NCBI GenBank assembly: GCA_019310485.1
Contig: JAFDEF010000007.1
Span: forward strand, 4,434 to 68,433
From: Deltaproteobacteria bacterium
GTDB taxonomy: Bacteria > Desulfobacterota > DSM-4660 > Desulfatiglandales > HGW-15
Direction: 5' to 3'
DNA: 64,000 nt
The position numbers and the translations under genes were made by a program. Each line of letters opens with the position of its first letter. The stretch's first letter is position 1. The notes beneath the pieces are model-generated. The model saw only the letters and a list, made by a program, of their open reading frames with translations. It was not told the origin of the DNA and did no database searches. This document shows, piece by piece, positions 11,060-62,572 of the stretch.

Positions 11060-12232
11060 ATGGAAAAAGATGATAGCAAAGCGGTCAAGAGGTTGAAACC
11101 TGTTGTTAGGGAATCGGATAGCTCACCCATGCGGGAAATGATGAAGATGATGGAGGAGCATAAAGATCTTTTGAGTCTTTCAGCCGGGGAGGCAAATTTC
11201 GATCCCCCTGAACAACTTATAAATCTGGCGATAGATGCGATGAGAAAAGACAAGAACCGGTACACTTCTACTAACGGGATTCCCGAGATCCGTGAAGCGG
11301 TAGCCAGATTCGTCTATGATCAGTGGGGGGTAAAGGTTGATCCCGGGCAAAATATTTTGATGACAGTCGGCGGGATGGAAGCCATTTTCCTGGCTGCCAG
11401 GATAGTGCTGGAAAAAGGCGACAGGGTGCTTCTTCCGGACCCGGGCTGGGGCGTCATGCGAACCGTTGTGGAAAGGCTTGGTGCTGTAATAGATTACTAT
11501 CCCTTGCGCGAGGGGGAGCAATGGATCATTGACCACGATGCTATTCTGAGCCGTATGAATGAAAACACGAAGCTCGTGGTTGTCAATACTCCATCTAATC
11601 CCACAGGAGCCACACTTTCAAGAGAAGGGTTTGGTGCATTGTTGGAGAGGGCCGAAAAACTAGGCACTTTTATCCTCTCAGACGAGGTGTACCATAACTA
11701 TGTTTACGAAGGCCAGCATGTCAGCGGACTAAGCTTTGATAGTCTTGACAACTTGATTTTTGTCAACAGCTTCTCAAAGGCATTTGCAGTCACGGGGTGG
11801 CGACTTGGTTACGCAATCGCCCACCCCTGGATCATACGGCAGATGGGGATATTCAAAGAAAGCATCTCTCTTTGCTCTTTTTCCATCGGCCAGTGGGCAA
11901 TGTCCGAGTTTCTACCCGTATGTAAGGGCTACCTTCAGGAGGCGCGAGAATTTTGTAGGAAAAACATGGAAATGTTGGTGGAGGGACTGCAAGCTATTCC
12001 CGGTGTCAGGTGCACTCCGCCCCTGGGAGGGCTCTATGTTTTTCCAGACTTTTCAGAGATTGAGCCCTCTTCACAAGAGCTTTTCAAGCGACTACTCAAC
12101 GCAGGCGTGGCTGTCGCGCCGGGAGCTTTTTTTGGCTCCCAGGGTGAGGGGCGCGCTAGGCTCATGTTTGCATGTCCTCCTGAGAGAATAGAAAAAGGAC
12201 TTGAAAGGATTCGGGCTGCTCTTGACAGGTAG
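11060..12232 (+). CDS. Pyridoxal-phosphate-dependent aminotransferase, class I/II
   Basis: 390 aa with NTPSNPTG and SFSKAFAVTGWRLGY (PLP lysine region). Starts 3 nt after the FAH gene. Confidence 0.9.
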   Translation: MEKDDSKAVKRLKPVVRESDSSPMREMMKMMEEHKDLLSLSAGEANFDPPEQLINLAIDAMRKDKNRYTSTNGIPEIREAVARFVYDQWGVKVDPGQNILMTVGGMEAIFLAARIVLEKGDRVLLPDPGWGVMRTVVERLGAVIDYYPLREGEQWIIDHDAILSRMNENTKLVVVNTPSNPTGATLSREGFGALLERAEKLGTFILSDEVYHNYVYEGQHVSGLSFDSLDNLIFVNSFSKAFAVTGWRLGYAIAHPWIIRQMGIFKESISLCSFSIGQWAMSEFLPVCKGYLQEAREFCRKNMEMLVEGLQAIPGVRCTPPLGGLYVFPDFSEIEPSSQELFKRLLNAGVAVAPGAFFGSQGEGRARLMFACPPERIEKGLERIRAALDR

Positions 12233-12875: not shown

Positions 12876-14324
12876 ATGGCAGAGAAAGAATTTTTGGATT
12901 TTTGCTCCTTCCTCTCCGGGGTGAGCCTGGCATCTGTGCCACAAAGTGTCGTAGATCACGCCAAGCTGGTGCTGCTGGACACGCTTGGTGTCGTTATTGC
13001 TGGTTCGCAAAACGCTGAAGTAGACAAAATTGCAAAGCATCTTTGCCTAATTGGCAACCGGGACAGAAGTGCCACATGGCCTGGGAGGCAAGAGCGTTTC
13101 AATCCTTTGGACGCGGCTCTGGTTAGCGGTATTTCGGGTTCAAGCCTTGAATATGAGGAAGGTAACTCCAGGGCCATGGGCCATCCTGCGATTCAGCTCA
13201 TCCCGGGGCTTATGGCTGCTTGCGAATCGGAAAACCTGACAGGGGAAAGGGTGCTGAGGGGTCTTATTGCGGGCTACGAGGCGGGCAGCAGGGTGAGCCG
13301 TGCTTCCTCAATCAGAAAGGGCCTTCATCCGACCGGAACATGGGGTGTAGTGGGATGTGCACTCGCTGTGGCGTGTGCATCTGGAAAAAAGCCCCAAGAT
13401 CTGGTTCAGATTTTAAACATCGCTTCGTCCTTTGCTCTTTCTCCTTATGTGAAAAACTCTTTTGTGGGGAAAAACGTAGCAGCAACGTTTGCAGGAGTTA
13501 CAAACTACCTGGGGTTGCTTGCAAATCTTTTTTTTGACAGTGGCATCCGGGCTGACGAGAGCAGCTTCAAAATGACCTTTTCCAGGTTTGTCTCAGATGA
13601 TTTCGAGCCGGATCTTCTCTATGATAATCTTGGAAAAGAATACGCAATAGCCGAAAATTACTTCAAGCCTTACCCAACATGCCGGTTTACCCATCCTTCA
13701 CTTGACGCCCTGAAAGCTATCTTGGAGAGGGAGCAGGTCAATCCCGAAGATGTTGCCCGCGTTAAGGTCTGGAGCTTCAGGGCAGCAGTTCATACTTCTT
13801 CCAGCCCGCCGTCAAATGCCGAGGCCATGCGTTTCTCAACCCCTTATCTTGTTGCCGTGATGCTGGTTTATGGAAATATCAACCTTGGAATAATGAACTT
13901 CCCCGCCGCAAGCAGCGGGGTATCAATCGGAAACCATCTTAACCGCCCCAAGGGGCGGGGAATCAAACCCTTGTCCGCCTCTGGCGGATTGAAAGACGAA
14001 CTGATCGAGGATCATAAAATAAAGGACCTTGCTGCCAGGGTTGAAATGATTCACTCTCGTGAATACGAAAGAATGCTGCCCAGGCACAATCCTGCCAGGG
14101 TTACCGTTCAGCTCAAGGATGGGCGAGAGTTTACCCATGAAACCCTAAACTGCAGGGGAGATCCTTTAAACCCATTGACAGGAGAAGAAGTATCACAAAA
14201 ATTCCTGTCACTCGCAGGGCCTGTCATAGGAGACAAAAGAGCTGAACAGTTTTTGGAGAAGCTCAAGAATCTTGAGTCAGAGAAGCACATTCAAGAATTA
14301 ACGGCACTGCTGAGGCCTGCTTAG
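12876..14324 (+). CDS. MmgE/PrpD family protein carrying a 32-codon repeat-derived insertion
   Basis: 482 aa with PrpD-like sequence throughout (VLLDTLGVVIAGS, HPTGTWGVVG, KPYPTCRFTHP). Residues NFPAASSGVSIGNHLNRPKGRGIKPLSASGGL are encoded by a family-1 repeat. Confidence 0.85.
   Translation: MAEKEFLDFCSFLSGVSLASVPQSVVDHAKLVLLDTLGVVIAGSQNAEVDKIAKHLCLIGNRDRSATWPGRQERFNPLDAALVSGISGSSLEYEEGNSRAMGHPAIQLIPGLMAACESENLTGERVLRGLIAGYEAGSRVSRASSIRKGLHPTGTWGVVGCALAVACASGKKPQDLVQILNIASSFALSPYVKNSFVGKNVAATFAGVTNYLGLLANLFFDSGIRADESSFKMTFSRFVSDDFEPDLLYDNLGKEYAIAENYFKPYPTCRFTHPSLDALKAILEREQVNPEDVARVKVWSFRAAVHTSSSPPSNAEAMRFSTPYLVAVMLVYGNINLGIMNFPAASSGVSIGNHLNRPKGRGIKPLSASGGLKDELIEDHKIKDLAARVEMIHSREYERMLPRHNPARVTVQLKDGREFTHETLNCRGDPLNPLTGEEVSQKFLSLAGPVIGDKRAEQFLEKLKNLESEKHIQELTALLRPA
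13892..13992 (-). repeat. Family-1 structured repeat, subfamily 1b short form, inside the MmgE/PrpD CDS
   Basis: Near-identical to the copy at 59021-59121 in reverse orientation. Flanked by AATGA and ATTGA. Removing 96 nt leaves an intact frame (..GIM-K-DELIE..). Confidence 0.9.
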
Positions 14325-15103: not shown

Positions 15104-15222
15104 TTAATCCGCCAGAGGCGGATTAATCCGCCAGAGGCGGACGAGGGTTCAATTCCCCGCCCCTCAGGGTGTTAAGAAAATTTCCGATTGATACCCCGTC
15201 CGCTTGCGGCGGGGTAGTTAAT
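15104..15222 (+). repeat. Family-1 structured repeat, subfamily 1a long form
   Basis: 119 bp, bounded by TTAAT at both ends. About 95% identical by hand count to 62454-62572. Carries a tandem CCGCCAGAGGCGG hairpin module plus two more GC hairpins. Confidence 0.9.
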
Positions 15223-15320: not shown

Positions 15321-16628
15321 ATGATTAAGCTCTTGCAAAAAAAGGGGGAATTGGAAGTCCATCTTCCATCAAAGTGGAAGGTTGCGCAGACAATTTTCAA
15401 AGAACCGGCGCAGGTGGATGCTTCGCCGTCAGAACTGATGAAGACGGCATTGGACAATCCGGTTGGTGCCCCGCGCCTGGAGGAGCTTTTGAAACCAGGC
15501 TCAAAGGTTGCTGTTGTGGTGGATGACATGACGCGACATACCCCGGTAAAGGATCTTTTGCCTCCACTACTTGAAGTGATAGATGGGGCTGGTATTCCAC
15601 CTGAAGACGTTGATATAGTTATAGGAGTCGGCACTCACCGTCCTATGACCACTGATGAGATCAAAGAGCGAGTCGGAGCAGGGATAGTAAAAAGTTATCG
15701 TATTCAAAACCACGACGCACACTCCTCTGAGCTGGTGGTTATGGGCGAACTTCCCGGCTATGGTCCCGTATCATTCAATGCCGCGGTGGCAAGGGCTGAT
15801 GTGAAGGTTATCGCCGGATCAATTGTTCCTCACGTCCATAACGGCTTTGGTGGTGGTCCCAAAAACATAATGCCGGGAATTTGCAATTTTGATACTATCC
15901 GGCGACATCACATGAAGAATGTGTTACACCACAGGGCCAGGGTCGGAATAGTAGAGGGAAACCCATTTTTGAAAGATACCGTCGAGATTGCAAAACTGGC
16001 CGGAGTAAATTTTGCTGTTCAGTGTCTAGGAGATACCATGGGTCAGATTTACGAGGTGCTTGCAGGAGACGTATTTGGAGTTTACGGCCTTGGCATTGAA
16101 AAGCAGAAAAAATATCTTGGGGTGCAGGTTTCAGGCCGTTCGGATGTAACTCTCGTCTCCTCCCATCCCTATGATGAAGGAGTCCAGATCATGAAGGCAT
16201 TTATGCCCTCAGCGATGGTCACTAAAGACGGAGGAAGCATCCTAGTGATCACTGAACTAAAGGATCCGTTGCCGGATTTTTTCCTGGATAGCGTGAGAAA
16301 AGTCAGAGGTAAAGGGGGCAGCGAGGCAGAAGCAGGTGCCTTAGAGAAACTAAAACACTACGAACCGCTTATTGAAGAAGCAGCCATGGATTTCAACATG
16401 GCGATCATCTTGATTCTTGCAATCACGAGACGGTTTAAGTTGGTGCTGGTTGGTCATGAAGTGCTTAGGGATGCTGCAAAGGCTATAGGATGTCGATATT
16501 CGCCTGACTTGAGCACTGCCCTGAAGGAGGAAAGCAGCAGGGTGAAAGAGGCCTCAGTCAGCATAATTCCGGCAGGCGGTTATATTTTTCCAATAATCTC
16601 AGAGCCGTTTTACCTGCTTGAAAACTGA
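15321..16628 (+). CDS. LarA-like protein (lactate-racemase N-terminal domain / DUF2088 family)
   Basis: The motifs GVGTHRP and HNGFGGGPKNIMPG resemble the catalytic-His and cofactor-Lys regions of LarA as I recall them. The ATG at 15321 has AGGAG 7 nt upstream; the ORF extends to a TTG at 15306. Confidence 0.75.
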   Translation: MIKLLQKKGELEVHLPSKWKVAQTIFKEPAQVDASPSELMKTALDNPVGAPRLEELLKPGSKVAVVVDDMTRHTPVKDLLPPLLEVIDGAGIPPEDVDIVIGVGTHRPMTTDEIKERVGAGIVKSYRIQNHDAHSSELVVMGELPGYGPVSFNAAVARADVKVIAGSIVPHVHNGFGGGPKNIMPGICNFDTIRRHHMKNVLHHRARVGIVEGNPFLKDTVEIAKLAGVNFAVQCLGDTMGQIYEVLAGDVFGVYGLGIEKQKKYLGVQVSGRSDVTLVSSHPYDEGVQIMKAFMPSAMVTKDGGSILVITELKDPLPDFFLDSVRKVRGKGGSEAEAGALEKLKHYEPLIEEAAMDFNMAIILILAITRRFKLVLVGHEVLRDAAKAIGCRYSPDLSTALKEESSRVKEASVSIIPAGGYIFPIISEPFYLLEN

Positions 16629-30417: not shown

Positions 30418-30530
30418 GTGGAGCCCCACGGGCAAGCCCGTGGCACCACTTAGTCTCGCCGAATTGCTTCGCAATCGGCGGGACTTAGTGGTACGACATC
30501 CCGCCCGCCCTTAACCGCATTCATCCACGG
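30418..30530 (+). repeat. Family-3 structured repeat, in the ilvB-ilvN spacer
   Basis: A core of about 113 bp matches the reverse complement of 54913-55026, with 2-3 differences by hand alignment. It contains the hairpin CCACGGGCAAGCCCGTGG and a roughly 45-nt imperfect hairpin (CCACTTAGTC...GACTTAGTGG). Confidence 0.85.
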
Positions 30531-30551
30531 TAAAAGCAAGGAGAGGAAATC

Positions 30552-31052: not shown

Positions 31053-31090
31053 AGCAGCGCTCAATGGCCGCTTGGACTTTGTTCAGAAAA

Positions 31091-31199
31091 GTAAACCCTG
31101 TGGAATTTCGCACGGGGCATTGAACCCCGTGCGAAAAAGCGGAAAAAAACTTTATTTACCATCCCCGTGCTCCCGCACGGGGCGTTCCTACGGGGTAAA
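31091..31199 (+). repeat. Family-2 structured repeat, in the ilvN-ilvC spacer
   Basis: 109 bp, starting GTAAACCC and ending GGGGTAAA. Hairpins TCGCACGGGG/CCCCGTGCGA and CCCCGTGC/GCACGGGG. Nearly identical to 39048-39156, 46784-46892 and 61823-61930. Confidence 0.9.
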
Positions 31200-39030: not shown

Positions 39031-39047
39031 GGTACGATTTAGCTAAA

Positions 39048-39156
39048 GTAAACCCTGTGGAATTTCGCACGGGGCATTGAACCCCGTGCGAAAAAGCGGG
39101 AAAAAACTTTATTTACCATCCCCGTGCTCCCGCATGGGGCATTCCTACGGGGTAAA
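39048..39156 (+). repeat. Family-2 structured repeat, in the dsrB-dsrD spacer
   Basis: 109 bp in the same orientation as the other three copies. Its 3' end (GGGGTAAA) runs directly into the dsrD SD (AAGGAG). Confidence 0.9.
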
Positions 39157-39484: not shown

Positions 39485-40111
39485 GTGAAAGAACCACAGG
39501 ACTCTGAGGAATTCATTGCTGAGCAGAAAAAAATCCTTGCGGAAAACCCTGAATGCGCTAGTTCTCAGTACAATCTGGGTGTTGCGCTGATGGAGCAGGG
39601 TAAATTCGATGAAGCGATTCCCTTTTTCGAGGAAGCAATTGCCAATAGCGGTCGGATGTTTGAGGGATGGGTAAATCTGGGATATATTTATTTCAAGAAA
39701 GGCAAACTTGATAAGGTAGCAGAGGCTAATAGAAACGCTGTTGCAATTGAGCCCAGGTACGCTCGCGGATATGCAAACCTCGGATTTGCCTATCTCCAGA
39801 TGGCAAGGACAGATGAGGCGATAGCAGCGCTTGAAAAAGCCATCGAGCTGAATCCGGATATTGTCCAGGCCTGGAACAACCTAACCAATGCCTATCTTCA
39901 AAAAGGCGACGTAGGAAAAGCCATAGAAACCGGCAAGAAACTTCTGGAACTGGCTCCAACCTTTGCCCTGGGACATAATAACCTTGGATATGCATATTAT
40001 GTAAAAGGTGCCTATGAAAAGGCAATCAAGCATGTGGACAGGGCCAGGGAGCTGGGGTTCCAGGTTCCCCGTGAATTCCTGGAAAAACTGGAACCTTACC
40101 GTAAGAAATGA
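39485..40111 (+). CDS. Tetratricopeptide-repeat protein
   Basis: 208 aa with repeated TPR-like units (A..Y.NLG.AY...G..DEAI..FEKAIELNP). Confidence 0.8.
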   Translation: MKEPQDSEEFIAEQKKILAENPECASSQYNLGVALMEQGKFDEAIPFFEEAIANSGRMFEGWVNLGYIYFKKGKLDKVAEANRNAVAIEPRYARGYANLGFAYLQMARTDEAIAALEKAIELNPDIVQAWNNLTNAYLQKGDVGKAIETGKKLLELAPTFALGHNNLGYAYYVKGAYEKAIKHVDRARELGFQVPREFLEKLEPYRKK

Positions 40112-40746
40112 ATCCCACTCAGTTTTTCCGAAGCTATGAATTTCTGGTGGACAGGGCTGATGCTTTCTTCGCGAAAATGGAGAAAGGCTACGGCTCGTGT
40201 ATCAATTGCAAGAGGCACTGCTCTGATTGTTGTCAGGCCGTATTCGGGTTGTTCCTGATCGAGTCGGCCTACATAAAATCTCGTTTCGACCAGCTTGACC
40301 CTGATACAAGGAAACAGGCCATTTTGAGGTGCAATGAGGCTGACAGGGGTCTGAAAAGACTCGAGACAAAGCTGGAGATCAATAATGGCGACCCGGAAGC
40401 CCAGTCCTCAATTATGGCAAAAGAAAGAATCCGTTGTCCCCTCTTGGACGATAACGAGGACTGTATCCTTTACACGAACCGTCCCATAACGTGCCGCGTA
40501 TATGGTGCCCCTACAAGAATCCATGGCAAAGTCAGGGCTTGCAGCAGGTCAGGGTTCAAGGCAGGCGAACGGTATCCGGTATTTGACCTTGACGGCACTT
40601 ACAGGGAACTTTACTTGCTCTCAAGAGAGTTCCTGAGTACTGCGGGAGACGCTGATCCTGAAAAAGCCTCTTTGCTTATCTCTGTTTCAAAAGCAATAAG
40701 AACGCCACTAGAGGAGCTCGTATACGAGATCTTCCGACGAGGTTAA
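40108..40746 (+). CDS. YkgJ-family Cys-cluster protein (CxxCxxCC putative Fe/Zn-binding domain)
   Basis: CINCKRHCSDCC near the N-terminus and a later CPLL...C...C. Its start overlaps the TPR gene stop (ATGA). Confidence 0.7.
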   Translation: MNPTQFFRSYEFLVDRADAFFAKMEKGYGSCINCKRHCSDCCQAVFGLFLIESAYIKSRFDQLDPDTRKQAILRCNEADRGLKRLETKLEINNGDPEAQSSIMAKERIRCPLLDDNEDCILYTNRPITCRVYGAPTRIHGKVRACSRSGFKAGERYPVFDLDGTYRELYLLSREFLSTAGDADPEKASLLISVSKAIRTPLEELVYEIFRRG

Positions 40747-40865
40747 ATGAACTTCCCCGCCGCAAGCAGCGGGGTATCAATCGGAAACCATCTTAACCGC
40801 CCCAAGGGGCGGGGAATCAAAGCCTTGTCCGCCAGAGGCGGATTAATCCGCCTCTGGCGGATTGC
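40746..40865 (-). repeat. Family-1 structured repeat, subfamily 1b long form
   Basis: About 120 bp, inverted relative to 59021-59121, with one extra 19-nt CCGCC...GGCGG module. It begins at the last base of the ykgJ-like stop codon. Confidence 0.9.
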
Positions 40866-43662: not shown

Positions 43663-43781
43663 TTAATCCGCCAGGGGCGGACGAGCCCGCCAGAGGCGGA
43701 CAAGGGTTCAATTCCCCGCCCCTTGGGGCGTTAAGAAAATTTCCGATTGATACCCCGTCCGCTTGCAGCGGGGTAGTTAAT
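43663..43781 (+). repeat. Family-1 structured repeat, subfamily 1a
   Basis: 119 bp bounded by TTAAT at both ends. Lies in the convergent gap between the ATP-grasp gene and yjbQ. Confidence 0.9.
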
Positions 43782-44273: not shown

Positions 44274-44384
44274 TCAATCCGCCAGAGGCGGATTAATCCG
44301 CCTCTGGCGGACAAGGGTTTGATTCCCCGCCCCTTGGGGCGGTTAAGATGGTTTCCGATTGATACCCCGCTGCTTGCGGCGGGG
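44274..44384 (+). repeat. Family-1 structured repeat, subfamily 1b long form with divergent 3' end
   Basis: Starts with TCAAT and carries the double first module. The usual AAGTTCAAT end is missing. It sits between yjbQ and the upstream hypothetical gene. Confidence 0.85.
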
Positions 44385-46326: not shown

Positions 46327-46783
46327 GGAAAGCTATGCTCCACTCTATCAAGGAATTGGCTCCAGCTCCTTGCATACGCAACCGCATGCTGAAGGAGCCT
46401 TTATTCAAACACTAAAGCAAAATTATTTTACCTGCACAAAAAAATCAACATAAAACGCATGCCCCCATCCACCATTAAGCCATCATGTGCAGCACCTGCA
46501 AGCCCGTTTGGTCGAGCTCAAGAAGATCCCCCAATGCCCCCTGTTGTGCTTCAAACCACGTGGTCTGAAAAGGTCATCTCGCTCCAAAGTCCCAGCTTCT
46601 ATCTCGGTTAGAGAGGCATCGACGACATGGTGTCTCACCCGCCCCACCCTTGAGTGACATTTAGCGCAGCCTCGGTTACAGTCGCCCTCCGTTTAAGGAA
46701 ACAGGAGCTATATGAGCCATTTTAACAGCGAACCCATGCTGGAGCTCCTTGACTTCAGGCACGAGGCCTTTTTATAGTAAAAA

Positions 46784-46892
46784 GTAAACCCTGTGGAATT
46801 TCGCACGGGGCATTGAACCCCGTGCGAAAAAGCGGAAAAAAACTTTATTTACCATCCCCGTGCTCCCGCACGGGGCGTTCCTACGGGGTAAA
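46784..46892 (+). repeat. Family-2 structured repeat, 91 nt upstream of rnc
   Basis: 109 bp. By hand alignment, identical to the 31091-31199 copy. Confidence 0.9.
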
Positions 46893-54790: not shown

Positions 54791-54912
54791 ATCGTGGCTG
54801 ATAACAGGAAAAAATTCGTAGGGCTCGGTTCAAACAAGCTGCTTCTTAGGAGGCGCATCGTAAAAATCCTCGCAGGCCCATTTACCCCGCCCGCAGAAAG
54901 CCACGGCTTTAG

Positions 54913-55026
54913 CCGTGGATGAATGCGCTTAAGGGCGGGCGGGATGTCGTACCACTAAGTCCCCGCCGATTGCGAAGCAATTCGGCGAGACTAAGTGGTG
55001 CCACGGGCTTGCCCGTGGGGCTCCAC
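54913..55026 (-). repeat. Family-3 structured repeat, inverted copy
   Basis: Reverse complement of 30418-30530. Lies between the dehydrogenase remnant and purD. Confidence 0.85.
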
Positions 55027-57692: not shown

Positions 57693-58888
57693 AGGGCAAG
57701 AATGTCGTTGTAGGTGTGACAGGGGGAATTGCCGCTTACAAGGCGGCGGAGCTTGTGCGCCTGCTTGTCAAAGCAGGCGCACAAACAAGGGTTGCCATGA
57801 CTGCTCATGCCACAAAGTTTGTAACCCCTCTCACCTTTGAAGTTCTCTCAGAAAACAGAGTAGTATGGGATATGTGGGACGGGCAAGAAAGTCCCATGTC
57901 TCATATCACCATGAGTCAGGAGGCCGACCTTATCATAATTGCCCCCGCAACAGCGAACTTCATCGGAAAAATTGCACACGGTATTGCGGATGATTTTCTT
58001 TCTACCTCAATTGTTGCCGCTACAGGAAAGATGCTTGTGTGTCCCTCTATGAATAGCCGCATGCTCTCGAACCCTGCAGTGCAGGAGAACATCACTCTGC
58101 TGAGAAAAAGGGGATACACTGTTATGGCTCCACAAGAGGGTGAGCTTGCATGCGGGGAAAGAGGTGTGGGCAGGCTTCCTGAACCGGAACAGATCCTGGA
58201 GCAGGCCAGGATTTTGCTCTCAGAACATGATCTTTCAGGAATGAAAGTACTCGTTACCGCTGGTGCTACGGTAGAACCGATTGACCCTGTGAGGTACATT
58301 ACAAACAGGTCAAGTGGCAAAATGGGTTACGCTTTGGCTAGAGCCGCTGCTCTCAGGGGTGCGGAAGTAATGCTTGTGAGCGGTCCCACCTCCCTTAACC
58401 CACCCCGCAATGTTAAAGTTTTCAGAGTGAAGACAGCCGCAGAGATGAGAGATGCGGTTCTTGGCCACCACGCGGAATGTGATGTTGTTATCAAGGCAGC
58501 CGCTGTCCTTGATTACAAGCCACGGAGACAATCGAAGACCAAGATAAAAAAGCTGGAGGAAATCCAGTCTCTTGAATTGGTACGAAATCCTGATATCCTT
58601 GCAGAGCTCGGGAGACGCAGAAGCGGAAAGAGGTCTCTGTTGGTCGGATTTGCGGCGGAGACCCACGATCTTATGAGCAATGCGAGGGAAAAGCTTCGAA
58701 AGAAAAACCTGGACATGATCATAGCTAATGACGTTTCCAGAGAAGATGCAGGGTTTGAATCGGACACTAATGCAGTTAAAATTATTCACAGGGATGGCCG
58801 CGTGGAAGAGCTTCCACTCATGACAAAGGAAGACCTTGCAGATCGTATTCTGGACAGAGTCAAGAAACTATGGAAAGAAACAGCCTAG
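57689..58888 (+). CDS. coaBC: Bifunctional phosphopantothenoylcysteine decarboxylase / phosphopantothenate-cysteine ligase
   Basis: 399 aa with a flavoprotein N-terminus (VVGVTGGIAAYK, PAMN-like CPSMN) and a CoaB C-terminal domain. Confidence 0.95.
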   Translation: MKGKNVVVGVTGGIAAYKAAELVRLLVKAGAQTRVAMTAHATKFVTPLTFEVLSENRVVWDMWDGQESPMSHITMSQEADLIIIAPATANFIGKIAHGIADDFLSTSIVAATGKMLVCPSMNSRMLSNPAVQENITLLRKRGYTVMAPQEGELACGERGVGRLPEPEQILEQARILLSEHDLSGMKVLVTAGATVEPIDPVRYITNRSSGKMGYALARAAALRGAEVMLVSGPTSLNPPRNVKVFRVKTAAEMRDAVLGHHAECDVVIKAAAVLDYKPRRQSKTKIKKLEEIQSLELVRNPDILAELGRRRSGKRSLLVGFAAETHDLMSNAREKLRKKNLDMIIANDVSREDAGFESDTNAVKIIHRDGRVEELPLMTKEDLADRILDRVKKLWKETA

Positions 58889-59691
58889 AGCCGGTTGAGG
58901 AATTGAGGCAAGTGGTCAGTCACTTGAAAAAACTAATGACCTATGACCGGGACATGGGGCTTGAGCCCCCCATACTGTCTTCTTCAACCCTGGAGTATCT
59001 CCGGAAAGAAGCCTCAAGTTTCAATCCGCCAGAGGCGGACGAGGGTTTGATTCCCCGCCCCTTGGGGCGGTTAAGATGGTTTCCGACTGATACCCCGCTG
59101 CTCGCGGCGGGGAAGTTCAATTCCCTGGAGGATCTTAGAGATTTCATTGGTGAATGCAAGAGATGCAAGCTCTGGCGCGGGAGGACAAATCTGGTGTTTG
59201 GTGAGGGCTCACATAAGGCTCGATTGGTCTTTGTGGGTGAAGGACCCGGAAGGGAAGAAGACATAGCAGGTAGGCCCTTTGTTGGCGAAGCGGGCAAACT
59301 CTTGACCAGAATAATAGAAAACGGAATGGGGCTGAAACGAAATGAAGTTTACATTTGTAATGTTGTAAAATGCCGCCCTCCACGCAACCGGGACCCCGAA
59401 AAAGATGAAATTGAGGCCTGCTTACCCTTTCTGGAGCAGCAGCTTAGAATAATCAGCCCCGAGGTCATCTGCACTCTAGGCAGGGTGTCGGCTCAGGCCT
59501 TGCTCGGGGGGGAGTTCAAGATCACGCGCGAGAGAGGGAAGTGGTTTTCTTTTATGGATATCCCTCTGATGCCCACATACCATCCGGCATATCTTTTGCG
59601 AAACCCATCGGCAAAACGCGATGTATGGGAGGATGCCAAAAAAATTATGAGACACCTGGGGCTGGAGGTCAGGGAGAATGCTCAGGCGTAG
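58870..59691 (+). CDS. Family-4 uracil-DNA glycosylase carrying a 32-codon repeat-derived insertion
   Basis: CKRCKL..R.NLVFGEG, GEGPGREEDIAGRPFVG and HPAYLLR are family-4 UDG motifs. The N-terminal linker contains NPPEADEGLIPRPLGRLRWFPTDTPLLAAGKF, encoded by a family-1 repeat. Confidence 0.85.
   Translation: MERNSLEPVEELRQVVSHLKKLMTYDRDMGLEPPILSSSTLEYLRKEASSFNPPEADEGLIPRPLGRLRWFPTDTPLLAAGKFNSLEDLRDFIGECKRCKLWRGRTNLVFGEGSHKARLVFVGEGPGREEDIAGRPFVGEAGKLLTRIIENGMGLKRNEVYICNVVKCRPPRNRDPEKDEIEACLPFLEQQLRIISPEVICTLGRVSAQALLGGEFKITRERGKWFSFMDIPLMPTYHPAYLLRNPSAKRDVWEDAKKIMRHLGLEVRENAQA
59021..59121 (+). repeat. Family-1 structured repeat, subfamily 1b short form, inside the UDG CDS
   Basis: TCAAT at both ends. 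Deleting 96 nt restores gcc tca agt ttc aat tcc ctg gag (ASSFNSLE) in frame. Confidence 0.9.
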
Positions 59692-61088: not shown

Positions 61089-61826
61089 ATGTTTTGGATA
61101 TTGGCCGTGGTTTTGATTATCTTTTTTCTGGCTTCCGCTATAAGGATCCTGAGAGAGTATGAGCGGGGGGTCATCTTCAGGCTGGGCAGGGTGATCAAGA
61201 CCAAGGGGCCTGGCCTGATAATTCTAATACCTATTGTGGATAAAATGGTGAAAGTAAGCCTTCGCCTTGTGGCCATGGACGTTCCGCCCCAGGATGTAAT
61301 CACCAGGGATAATGTTTCCGTGAAAGTCAATGCTGTAATCTATTTCAGAGTCATGAACCCGACAAAGGCCACGATTGAAGTGGAAAACTACCTTTTTGCC
61401 ACCTCGCAGCTGGCCCAAACCACCCTGAGGAGTGTTTGTGGGCAGGTGGAGCTGGACGAGCTTCTCGGAGAACGAGAAAAGATCAATACCAGGCTCCAAA
61501 CCATTCTAGACGCCCATACCGATCCCTGGGGGATAAAGGTGTCCACCGTCGAGGTTAAACATATTGATCTGCCCCAAGAGATGCAAAGAGCAATGGCAAA
61601 ACAGGCGGAAGCCGAAAGAGAAAGAAGGGCAAAGGTCATAAATGCGGAAGGGGAGTTTCAGGCGGCAGATCGTCTGACCGAGGCGGCAGGCATAATCGCC
61701 AAGCATCCGGAGGCGCTCCAGTTAAGATATCTTCAGACACTGCGGGAAATATCCTCGGAAAGTAATTCCACGACTTTTTTCCCCATACCGATTGAACTTT
61801 TCAAGCCCTTCATAAAGAAGGAGTAA
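61089..61826 (+). CDS. SPFH/band-7 (stomatin-like) protein
   Basis: 245 aa with an N-terminal TM helix, [13 protein letters not shown], and a coiled [12 protein letters not shown] region. Confidence 0.9.
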
Positions 61827-61930
61827 ACCCTGTCGAATTTCGCACGGGGCATTGAACCCCGTGCGAAAAAGCGGAAAAAGCTTTATTGACCATCCCCGTG
61901 CTCCCGCACGGGGCATTCCTACGGGGTAAA
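61823..61930 (+). repeat. Family-2 structured repeat that overlaps the SPFH stop codon
   Basis: 108 bp, the most divergent of the four copies. Its 5' GTAAA includes the TAA stop (61824-61826). Confidence 0.9.
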
Positions 61931-62002
61931 AATTATCTTGACAAAAGTTGGACTGGACAGGCAAAGATTCTATGCCAATTTTGTGAACAGGAGCGTAGAT
62001 TC

Positions 62003-62453: not shown

Positions 62454-62572
62454 TTAATCCGCCAGAGGCGGATTAATCCGCCAGGGGCGGACGAGGGTTC
62501 AATTCCCCGCTCCTTGGGGCGTTAAGAAAATTTCCGATTGACACCCCGTCCGCTTGCGGCGGGGTAGTTAAT
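62454..62572 (+). repeat. Family-1 structured repeat, subfamily 1a long form
   Basis: 119 bp bounded by TTAAT at both ends. Lies between the terminator and ispD. Confidence 0.9.

Follow-up and report, generated by a model that had tools for sequence, protein, structure and literature searches.

A short hairpin repeat lying in frame in an MmgE/PrpD-family gene and in a uracil-DNA glycosylase gene of an uncultured deltaproteobacterium

In-frame insertion of palindromic DNA into genes is already known, from the Rickettsia palindromic elements (RPEs) and from the intragenic repetitive extragenic palindromes (REPs). The RPEs (Ogata et al., 2000) measure about 100-150 bp and, as summarised in PMC10969869, nearly half of the copies are genic in some families. 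The intragenic REPs of the GTAG and CGTC super-families lie in linkers and loops, and DNA repair genes are numerous among their hosts (Di Nocera et al., 2013, PMC3733652). A GTAG REP is a single palindrome of 20-40 bp with an unpaired 5' GTAG, mobilised by a REP-associated tyrosine transposase (RAYT), and two inverted REPs form a REPIN; the CGTC REPs have stems of 8-9 bp with A/T in the first two pairs, loops of 4-5 nt and a CCA tail (PMC3733652). [quoted passage not shown] Here we describe a repeat found in a 64,000-nt stretch of a Deltaproteobacteria bacterium (assembly GCA_019310485.1, contig JAFDEF010000007.1, positions 4,434 to 68,433; hereafter the window, within which all coordinates are counted), one copy of which lies in frame inside a gene of the MmgE/PrpD family and another inside a gene for a family-4 uracil-DNA glycosylase (UDG). 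We consider it probable, at roughly 0.8, that a selfish hairpin element has inserted in frame and that the 32 residues it adds are a tolerated by-product. A first-pass annotation of the window had named the RPEs as the only well-known parallel, which is too narrow, intragenic REPs, ERIC, the Coxiella QMITEs and the Anabaena MITEs being documented as well (PMC3733652, PMC10969869, PMC5896051). No new biological principle is revealed; what is new is the repeat family, since a limited search of the searchable literature found no description of the element or of such insertions in Desulfobacterales.

The MmgE/PrpD-family gene (12876-14324, forward strand) is an intact open reading frame (ORF) of 482 residues that reads straight through a copy of the repeat and gains 32 codons from it, as had first been annotated. 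Its product is identical to a 482-residue MmgE/PrpD protein (NCBI record MBW1667257.1 and siblings) in which Pfam recognises PF03972 and PF19305, and which matches IRG1 and IDS epimerase among the sequences of the PDB. The copy, a short form of 96 nt belonging to subfamily A, occupies 13895-13990 on the forward strand; integration took place after the second base of codon 340, and the added peptide, residues 341-372, is NFPAASSGVSIGNHLNRPKGRGIKPLSASGGL, 32 residues rich in Gly, Ser, Pro and Ala. The limits given at first, 13892-13992 for the element and 13897-13992 for its removable part, need this small correction, and any register within the repeated TGAA yields the same protein. Among 399 MmgE/PrpD homologs found, the typical length is 450-455 residues, and in a 100-sequence alignment the columns of the insert are vacant in all 99 homologs (48-69% identity), the single residue that each of them shows there being an alignment-edge effect. 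The comparison with orthologs that had been suggested as a check therefore finds the segment in 0/99, and the objection that distant orthologs might carry it fails. Removal of the 96 nt in silico gives ..GNINLGIM|KDELIED.., which, as had been predicted, is in frame and runs gap-free against all the homologs, for example ..GKIDLETLRNEVLED.., and the family-invariant residues are all kept in the insert-bearing protein. An exhaustive HMMER search of 1.84 billion cluster representatives (clustered at 50% identity, so that insert-bearing members may be hidden) gave 17 matches to NFPAASSGVSIGNHLNRPKGRGIKPLSASGGL and none in another sizeable protein; three of the matches join the peptide to Pfam-bearing fragments, namely P0267 (Big_7), P0277 (Rhodanese) and P0268 (23S_rRNA_IVP), and the remainder are small ORFs called over intergenic copies. 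A word-indexed protein search with two element peptides returned 18 small ORFs and missed known positives, and was not used for frequencies. Translation of the insert would yield, among other tryptic fragments, GIKPLSASGGLK and ...NFPAASSGVSIGNHLNRPK.

An AlphaFold2 model of the protein, built on a 100-sequence alignment, has a mean predicted local distance difference test score (pLDDT) of 89 and a predicted template modelling score (pTM) of 0.90, and resembles the full-length crystal structures of the family, 6R6U, 7BRA, 2HP0 and 5MUX, with TM scores of 0.77-0.88 (Foldseek). The sole internal stretch with pLDDT below 50 covers residues 343-371, modelled as coil in the small C-terminal-side domain. 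In the structural modelling proposed in the first-pass annotation, the insert is thus a predicted coil beside a confidently folded core.

The second host is the UDG gene (58870-59691, forward strand), an ORF of 273 residues with PF03167, located 45 kb from the first insertion. A 96-nt short form, differing from the consensus at 3/96 positions, lies in frame at 59023-59118 on the reverse strand, and thus in the opposite orientation to the MmgE/PrpD case. The insert, NPPEADEGLIPRPLGRLRWFPTDTPLLAAGKF, adds about 32 residues (approximately residues 52-83) within the N-terminal linker; UDG homologs measure 238-239 residues, and the segment is missing from 12/12 and then from 82/82 of them. A Cys-X2-Cys motif follows 13 residues downstream of the element with no start codon in between, so that the element must lie within the coding region. 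In the UDG of a sister lineage (P0246/P0247, 87% identical, 241 residues) the site is empty and reads ...GASS|FDSLEDL..., or GCCTCAAGC|TTCGATTCC in the corresponding DNA (L077); the 241-residue members of the UDG cluster had been considered as an empty allele, an interpretation that was rejected in favour of the empty site of this sister lineage. Neither the UDG nor the MmgE/PrpD protein was found by exact look-up in a version with the insert precisely deleted. The linker is naturally variable in length, one group of UDG homologs having a 10-residue insertion of its own there. The insert-bearing alleles vary solely inside the insert, with E58K in one and A56V in P0248. The model of this protein (pLDDT 83) has one internal low segment, residues 51-74, with scores below 50, and both inserts are accordingly predicted to be disordered loops beside confident cores.

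The region 13880-14010 matches six further places in the window by BLAST, with 86-100% identity and E values from 4e-47 to 2e-15, and a separate repeat search of the window recovered the same family, which totals seven copies. Five of the six others are intergenic, as had been counted at the outset, but the sixth is the in-frame UDG copy, which that count had left out. The five intergenic copies are long forms, situated at 15106-15220 (115 nt, reverse strand), 40749-40863 (115 nt, forward strand, abutting the stop codon of the gene at 40108-40746), 43665-43779 (115 nt, reverse strand, subfamily B), 44276-44384 (109 nt, reverse strand, with a 6-nt 5' leader missing) and 62456-62570 (115 nt, reverse strand, subfamily B). 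That the DNA repeat is primary and the peptide secondary, as had been proposed, agrees with the presence of the same DNA in intergenic positions here and at about 90 other non-redundant places, and with the lack of the segment in the homologs. The short form comprises, in this order, a leader (GAACTT or TAACTA), a first hairpin H1, a conserved spacer TATCAATCGGAAA..., a second hairpin H2, a linker GGAATCAAACCCTYG, a third hairpin H3 and a terminal TT; in the long form of 115 nt the 19-nt H3 module is repeated, and copies elsewhere have up to four extra modules. In the MmgE/PrpD copy, on the forward strand, H1 (CCCCGCCGCAAGCAGCGGGG) occupies 13901-13920, H2 (CCGCCCCAAGGGGCGG) 13943-13958 and H3 (TCCGCCTCTGGCGGA) 13974-13988. 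H1 begins 6 nt from the 5' end of the element and H3 stops 2 nt from its 3' end. The three stems are kept across copies: that of H1 in 87 copies, whose inner pair shows compensatory changes (C.A, T-A, C-G and A-T), that of H2, and that of H3, whose loop is variable and flips between TCT and AGA. Subfamilies A and B are distinguished by small indels, owing to which RNAalifold gave a poor consensus on 91 copies, and a per-hairpin analysis was used instead. The extreme termini (GAACTT.. and ..GGCGGATT) are not inverted repeats. Inside the element, TTCCCCGCC (13899-13907, element nt 5-13) and GGCGGGGAA after H2 (13954-13962) are exact reverse complements of each other, and their pairing gives an alternative long-range stem of about 60 nt that competes with local H1 and H2 in DNA folding. 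Among the copies of the HyVt-17 type (L145, L162, L046 and L134) and three others (L157, L026 and L130), some carry a 19-nt H3-like module inside the element, exactly at AATT|AA after H2, and some have H3 directly after H2. Every hairpin module ends with ATT|RAA, the same motif as the insertion target described below, which suggests that the element may grow by modular accretion or target itself. A tRNA-derived origin, similar to that of short interspersed nuclear elements and hinted at by the motif GGTTCAATTCC, was rejected, ARAGORN and Rfam having returned no tRNA or intron signal and no Rfam family in the element.

The target is A/T-rich and well defined. Among 91 non-redundant copies, R, A and T occupy positions -3, -2 and -1 in 88, 85 and 90, respectively, and R, A and A follow the element in 82, 84 and 72; the element itself starts with KAACT and ends with GGCGGATT, and the target is R-A-T|R-A-A. 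The AATGA and ATTGA noted beside the MmgE/PrpD copy in the first-pass annotation are indeed present, yet they are not arbitrary flanks and correspond to the family junction signature, R-A-T|KAACT...GGCGGATT|R-A-A. Both genic sites fit this target, the junction being GGAATAAT|GAAAGA in the MmgE/PrpD gene and GGGAATT|GAAACT in the UDG gene. The copy at 15106-15220 is polymorphic in natural populations: exactly 115 nt are missing in two contigs from two samples (L070 and L072) that match the window elsewhere at 99.97% identity, and a third contig (L073) is one 19-nt H3 module short. Since it is present or absent between contigs so nearly identical, this copy must have moved recently. Its empty site, read in the orientation of the element, is CGTAAAT^AAAAAC; only one T is ambiguous, which leaves no target-site duplication, and the empty UDG site of the sister lineage is consistent with this. 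A model with a duplication (ATTAA/TGAA) predicts one T more than the real empty site has and was for this reason rejected. The TAA stop of the gene at 40108-40746 forms part of the target motif TAAAT|GAAC (40744-40749). The A/T-rich target may explain why copies occur at gene ends and are mostly intergenic.

In the preferred account, a small non-autonomous mobile element spreads selfishly, inserting at R-A-T|R-A-A; its short form amounts to exactly 32 codons and is free of stops in the orientation and frame concerned, so that the MmgE/PrpD ORF has stayed open, and the same element has entered the UDG linker in the opposite orientation. Genic copies would persist only where the length is a multiple of three, the frame is one of the two usable ones and the site is a tolerant loop or linker. 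The peptide would have no purpose of its own, lasting as a disordered loop that the host tolerates. The copies in the window follow this filter closely. Both genic ones have 96 nt and are the sole copies of that length, the five intergenic ones having 115 or 109 nt, and they occupy precisely the two frames that have no stop when the conserved junction T is counted, a third stop-free frame being closed by the junction, where T|GA makes a stop. The element has two to three open frames of six, against 2.16 expected from shuffled sequences, and is therefore not specially adapted for translation; the pattern of the genic copies is a survivorship filter. On this account the insert would be translated, and the enzyme may have kept its function.

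Several observations weigh against this interpretation. The MmgE/PrpD copy shows 0/96 differences from the subfamily-A consensus and the population that carries it is nearly clonal (99.8-100% identical), so that the intactness of the ORF and its apparent fixation count for little: in so young an insertion the frame should be open whether or not the gene functions, and the ratio of nonsynonymous to synonymous substitution rates (dN/dS) has no power. The region around the insertion is conserved in length, with no natural indels at the site in 99 homologs. The adjacent aminotransferase gene has an in-frame deletion of about 306 nt (approximately 11530-11835, bounded by the 8-nt direct repeat TGGATCAT) in L070 and a frameshifting deletion of 31 nt in L069, and 56 nt of a LarA_N-like gene (16543-16599) are missing in L069. 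Either assembly noise or a relaxation of selection on the cluster, in some of the population, may lie behind these deletions, and they may hint that the cluster is dispensable. As to mobility, no transposase was found among the small ORFs of the window, where the two ORFs lying between copies are UPF0047 and DUF6955, and none was enriched among 148 ORFs neighbouring copies elsewhere (batch Pfam, top 25 families); a crude screen for HUH/Y motifs likewise gave no transposase enrichment. Moreover, although 2/7 copies in the window are genic, real hosts number about 4 for some 110 copies overall (about 4%), which is not the scale of the RPEs.

The rival explanation that draws most on these points is that the insertion inactivated the MmgE/PrpD gene, or struck a gene already dispensable, and that the open frame is simply its state before decay. 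The youth of the copy, the clonality, the damaged neighbours and the length-conserved site all speak for it. On the other side, the invariant residues have all survived and the model gives the host a confident fold around the insert; 12/12 contigs examined have the insertion, whereas the nearby intergenic copy is polymorphic; the parallel UDG case, in a linker of naturally variable length, looks tolerated; and the genic copies obey the filter of frame and length expected under selection. On balance we regard an inactivated gene as somewhat unlikely. That the insert has instead been exapted, with the 32-residue loop now serving the enzyme in some new form of regulation or interaction, is very improbable. 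The insert is kept in all sampled contigs, and for intragenic REPs in repair genes, the category to which the second host belongs, functional effects have been speculated on (PMC3733652); nevertheless, a copy identical to the mobile consensus leaves neither time nor signal for adaptation, disorder is predicted for the insert, no other sizeable representative contains the peptide, and the open frames are as many as chance gives.

Programmed translational bypassing has precedents in gene 60 of phage T4 and in yeast mitochondria, with their GC-rich 'byp' hairpin elements. That the insert is skipped in this manner, or removed from the mRNA, deserves marginally less credit still, even if the element is rich in hairpins and the short direct repeats TGAA...TGAA stand at its bounds. 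Bypassing needs neither a length that is a multiple of three nor open frames, yet both genic copies have both; there is no matched in-frame pair of take-off and landing codons that would restore the spacing of the homologs; and the element matches no intron or ribozyme family, while a group I or II intron would need more than its 96 nt. Finally, repeats do break assemblies here, as seen in the partial proteins P0001 and P0242 and in a chimeric 619-nt contig (P0255), but the misplacement of a repeat copy in the gene by assembly or binning is excluded, because many samples yield the same assembly of the insert-bearing genes: the exact 482-residue protein occurs, with the identical insertion, on 17 contigs from about 10 ENA and JGI samples, the 1449-nt gene was produced alike by different assemblers on contigs of up to 138 kb, the 11 gene sequences compared are identical save for one synonymous single-nucleotide polymorphism (SNP), and the 273-residue UDG recurs on five contigs with a single SNP (E58K, within the insert). 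The concern about an assembly artefact raised in the first-pass annotation is thereby answered, and the tolerated insertion of a selfish element stays the preferred interpretation.

Compared with the RPEs, the likeness is behavioural: in both cases a short palindromic repeat of non-coding origin lies in frame in unrelated housekeeping genes and also in intergenic DNA, and the peptide would be a by-product, with inserts expected in loops compatible with the fold. The differences are that the host here is a Desulfobacterales-like, free-living or environmental bacterium instead of an obligate intracellular alphaproteobacterium, that the element is shorter (96 bp), that only about 4% of its copies are genic, and that its open frames are no more numerous than chance provides. 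With the REPs it shares GC-rich stem-loops, conserved short tails, frequent clustering and occasional genic positions, one of them in a repair gene, the UDG. Similarly to the CGTC REPs, CGTC abuts H3 in about half of the copies (TGTC in the others); in contrast to theirs, the GC stem of H3 measures 6 bp and its loop 3 nt, and its tail is TTRAA. GTAG is found on the 3' side of H1, opposite to its place in canonical GTAG REPs, and in subfamily B only, subfamily A having GAAG; the mobile unit is a composite of 96-115 nt whose three differing hairpins share one orientation, unlike a single REP or the inverted pair of a REPIN. Given these differences in tag geometry, stem, loop and tail, the element is not a GTAG or CGTC REP as defined. 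It resembles the MITEs in being a small non-autonomous repeat that sometimes overlaps or extends ORFs, adding residues, but the duplication at the verified empty site is at most 1 nt; lacking a TSD, it is not a classical MITE.

The element also resembles the PATEs. It leaves no room for a transposase, has palindromes near both termini and makes no target duplication; it also has a conserved short 5' target, a 5' palindrome further from its end than the 3' one, and a strain-specific presence or absence. Judged from these features, it would be a PATE in most respects. In contrast to the PATEs, its right flank (RAA) is also constrained and it contains a 9-nt internal inverted repeat, and PATEs have not been reported as in-frame inserts in genes. 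An IS605-type parent with matching ends was found neither among the small ORFs of the window nor among the top families of the 148 neighbour ORFs, and L032, a match to the left end only that had been considered as a longer autonomous parent, was rejected, being truncated and placed between an lgt-like and a SpoU-like gene. Our best guess, resting on hairpins that are subterminal, a 5' target that is fixed and an insertion that duplicates nothing, is that the mobilising enzyme would be a HUH/Y1 transposase acting on single strands, of the IS200/IS605 or RAYT type; precise presence and absence between near-identical genomes is likewise a feature of 'peel and paste' IS200/IS605 elements and PATEs, and the target motif together with the anatomy of the element could lead to the enzyme. 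A bolder proposal, which we regard as unlikely, is that this is an active, undescribed family of single-strand-transposed hairpin elements in Desulfobacterota, built from a 19-nt hairpin module whose end is the target motif of the element itself (ATT|RAA), so that modules would accrete onto and into copies already present, and that it continually seeds new disordered loops into proteins; if true, an RPE-like route of protein evolution would operate in free-living sulfate reducers, beyond the obligate intracellular bacteria, and could be watched in real time in natural populations. The insertions described here extend the in-frame insertion of selfish palindromes, best known from Rickettsia, to uncultured environmental Desulfobacterales, with unusually clean evidence in the form of exact boundaries, an empty site in a sister lineage, a population polymorphism and two cases in opposite orientations.

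The 91 non-redundant copies come from metagenome-assembled genomes (MAGs) of Desulfobacterales and from metagenomes, in which at least 99 loci carry copies. The MAGs with real copies are HyVt-17, HyVt-363, FCS_M_Desulfobacterota_02 and MFD03804.bin.2.142; fragments of the element occur in the Olavius Delta-1 symbiont and in one Adiutricales MAG, and a scan of viral contigs gave 4 matches. The window contains a DsrC gene, which fits a sulfate-reducing host. Further hosts were sought as long frames spanning copies, and two are credible, an AAA+/WHD ATPase (L056) and a TPR/SLH protein (L160/L188), both with the copy in an inter-domain linker, so that the credible genic sites lie in loops or linkers in 4/4 cases; the remaining spanning frames look spurious. 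Copies also appear on short contigs binned as Bacteroidota (L048, 'Muriicola', and L056, 'Bacteroidales'), for which mis-binning of Desulfobacterales contigs is more likely than spread across phyla. In public annotations, many 'hypothetical proteins' of 50-115 residues (P0250, P0253 and P0257, for instance) are translated intergenic copies. The repeat is thus a systematic source of spurious small genes, and annotators should expect 32-residue low-complexity 'loops' wherever it occurs.

Two other repeats were noticed in the window. A separate family of 113 nt has four copies with 69-100% identity (31087-31199, 39044-39156, 46780-46892 and 61819-61931), three of which (those at 31087, 46780 and 61819) contain a CCCCG...CGGGG hairpin similar to H1. 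An inverted pair of repeats of about 120 nt, at 30418-30537 and 54906-55026, is 95-100% complementary over a distance of 24 kb, and its sequence recurs elsewhere on the source contigs (side matches of the BLAST search, L002-L004).

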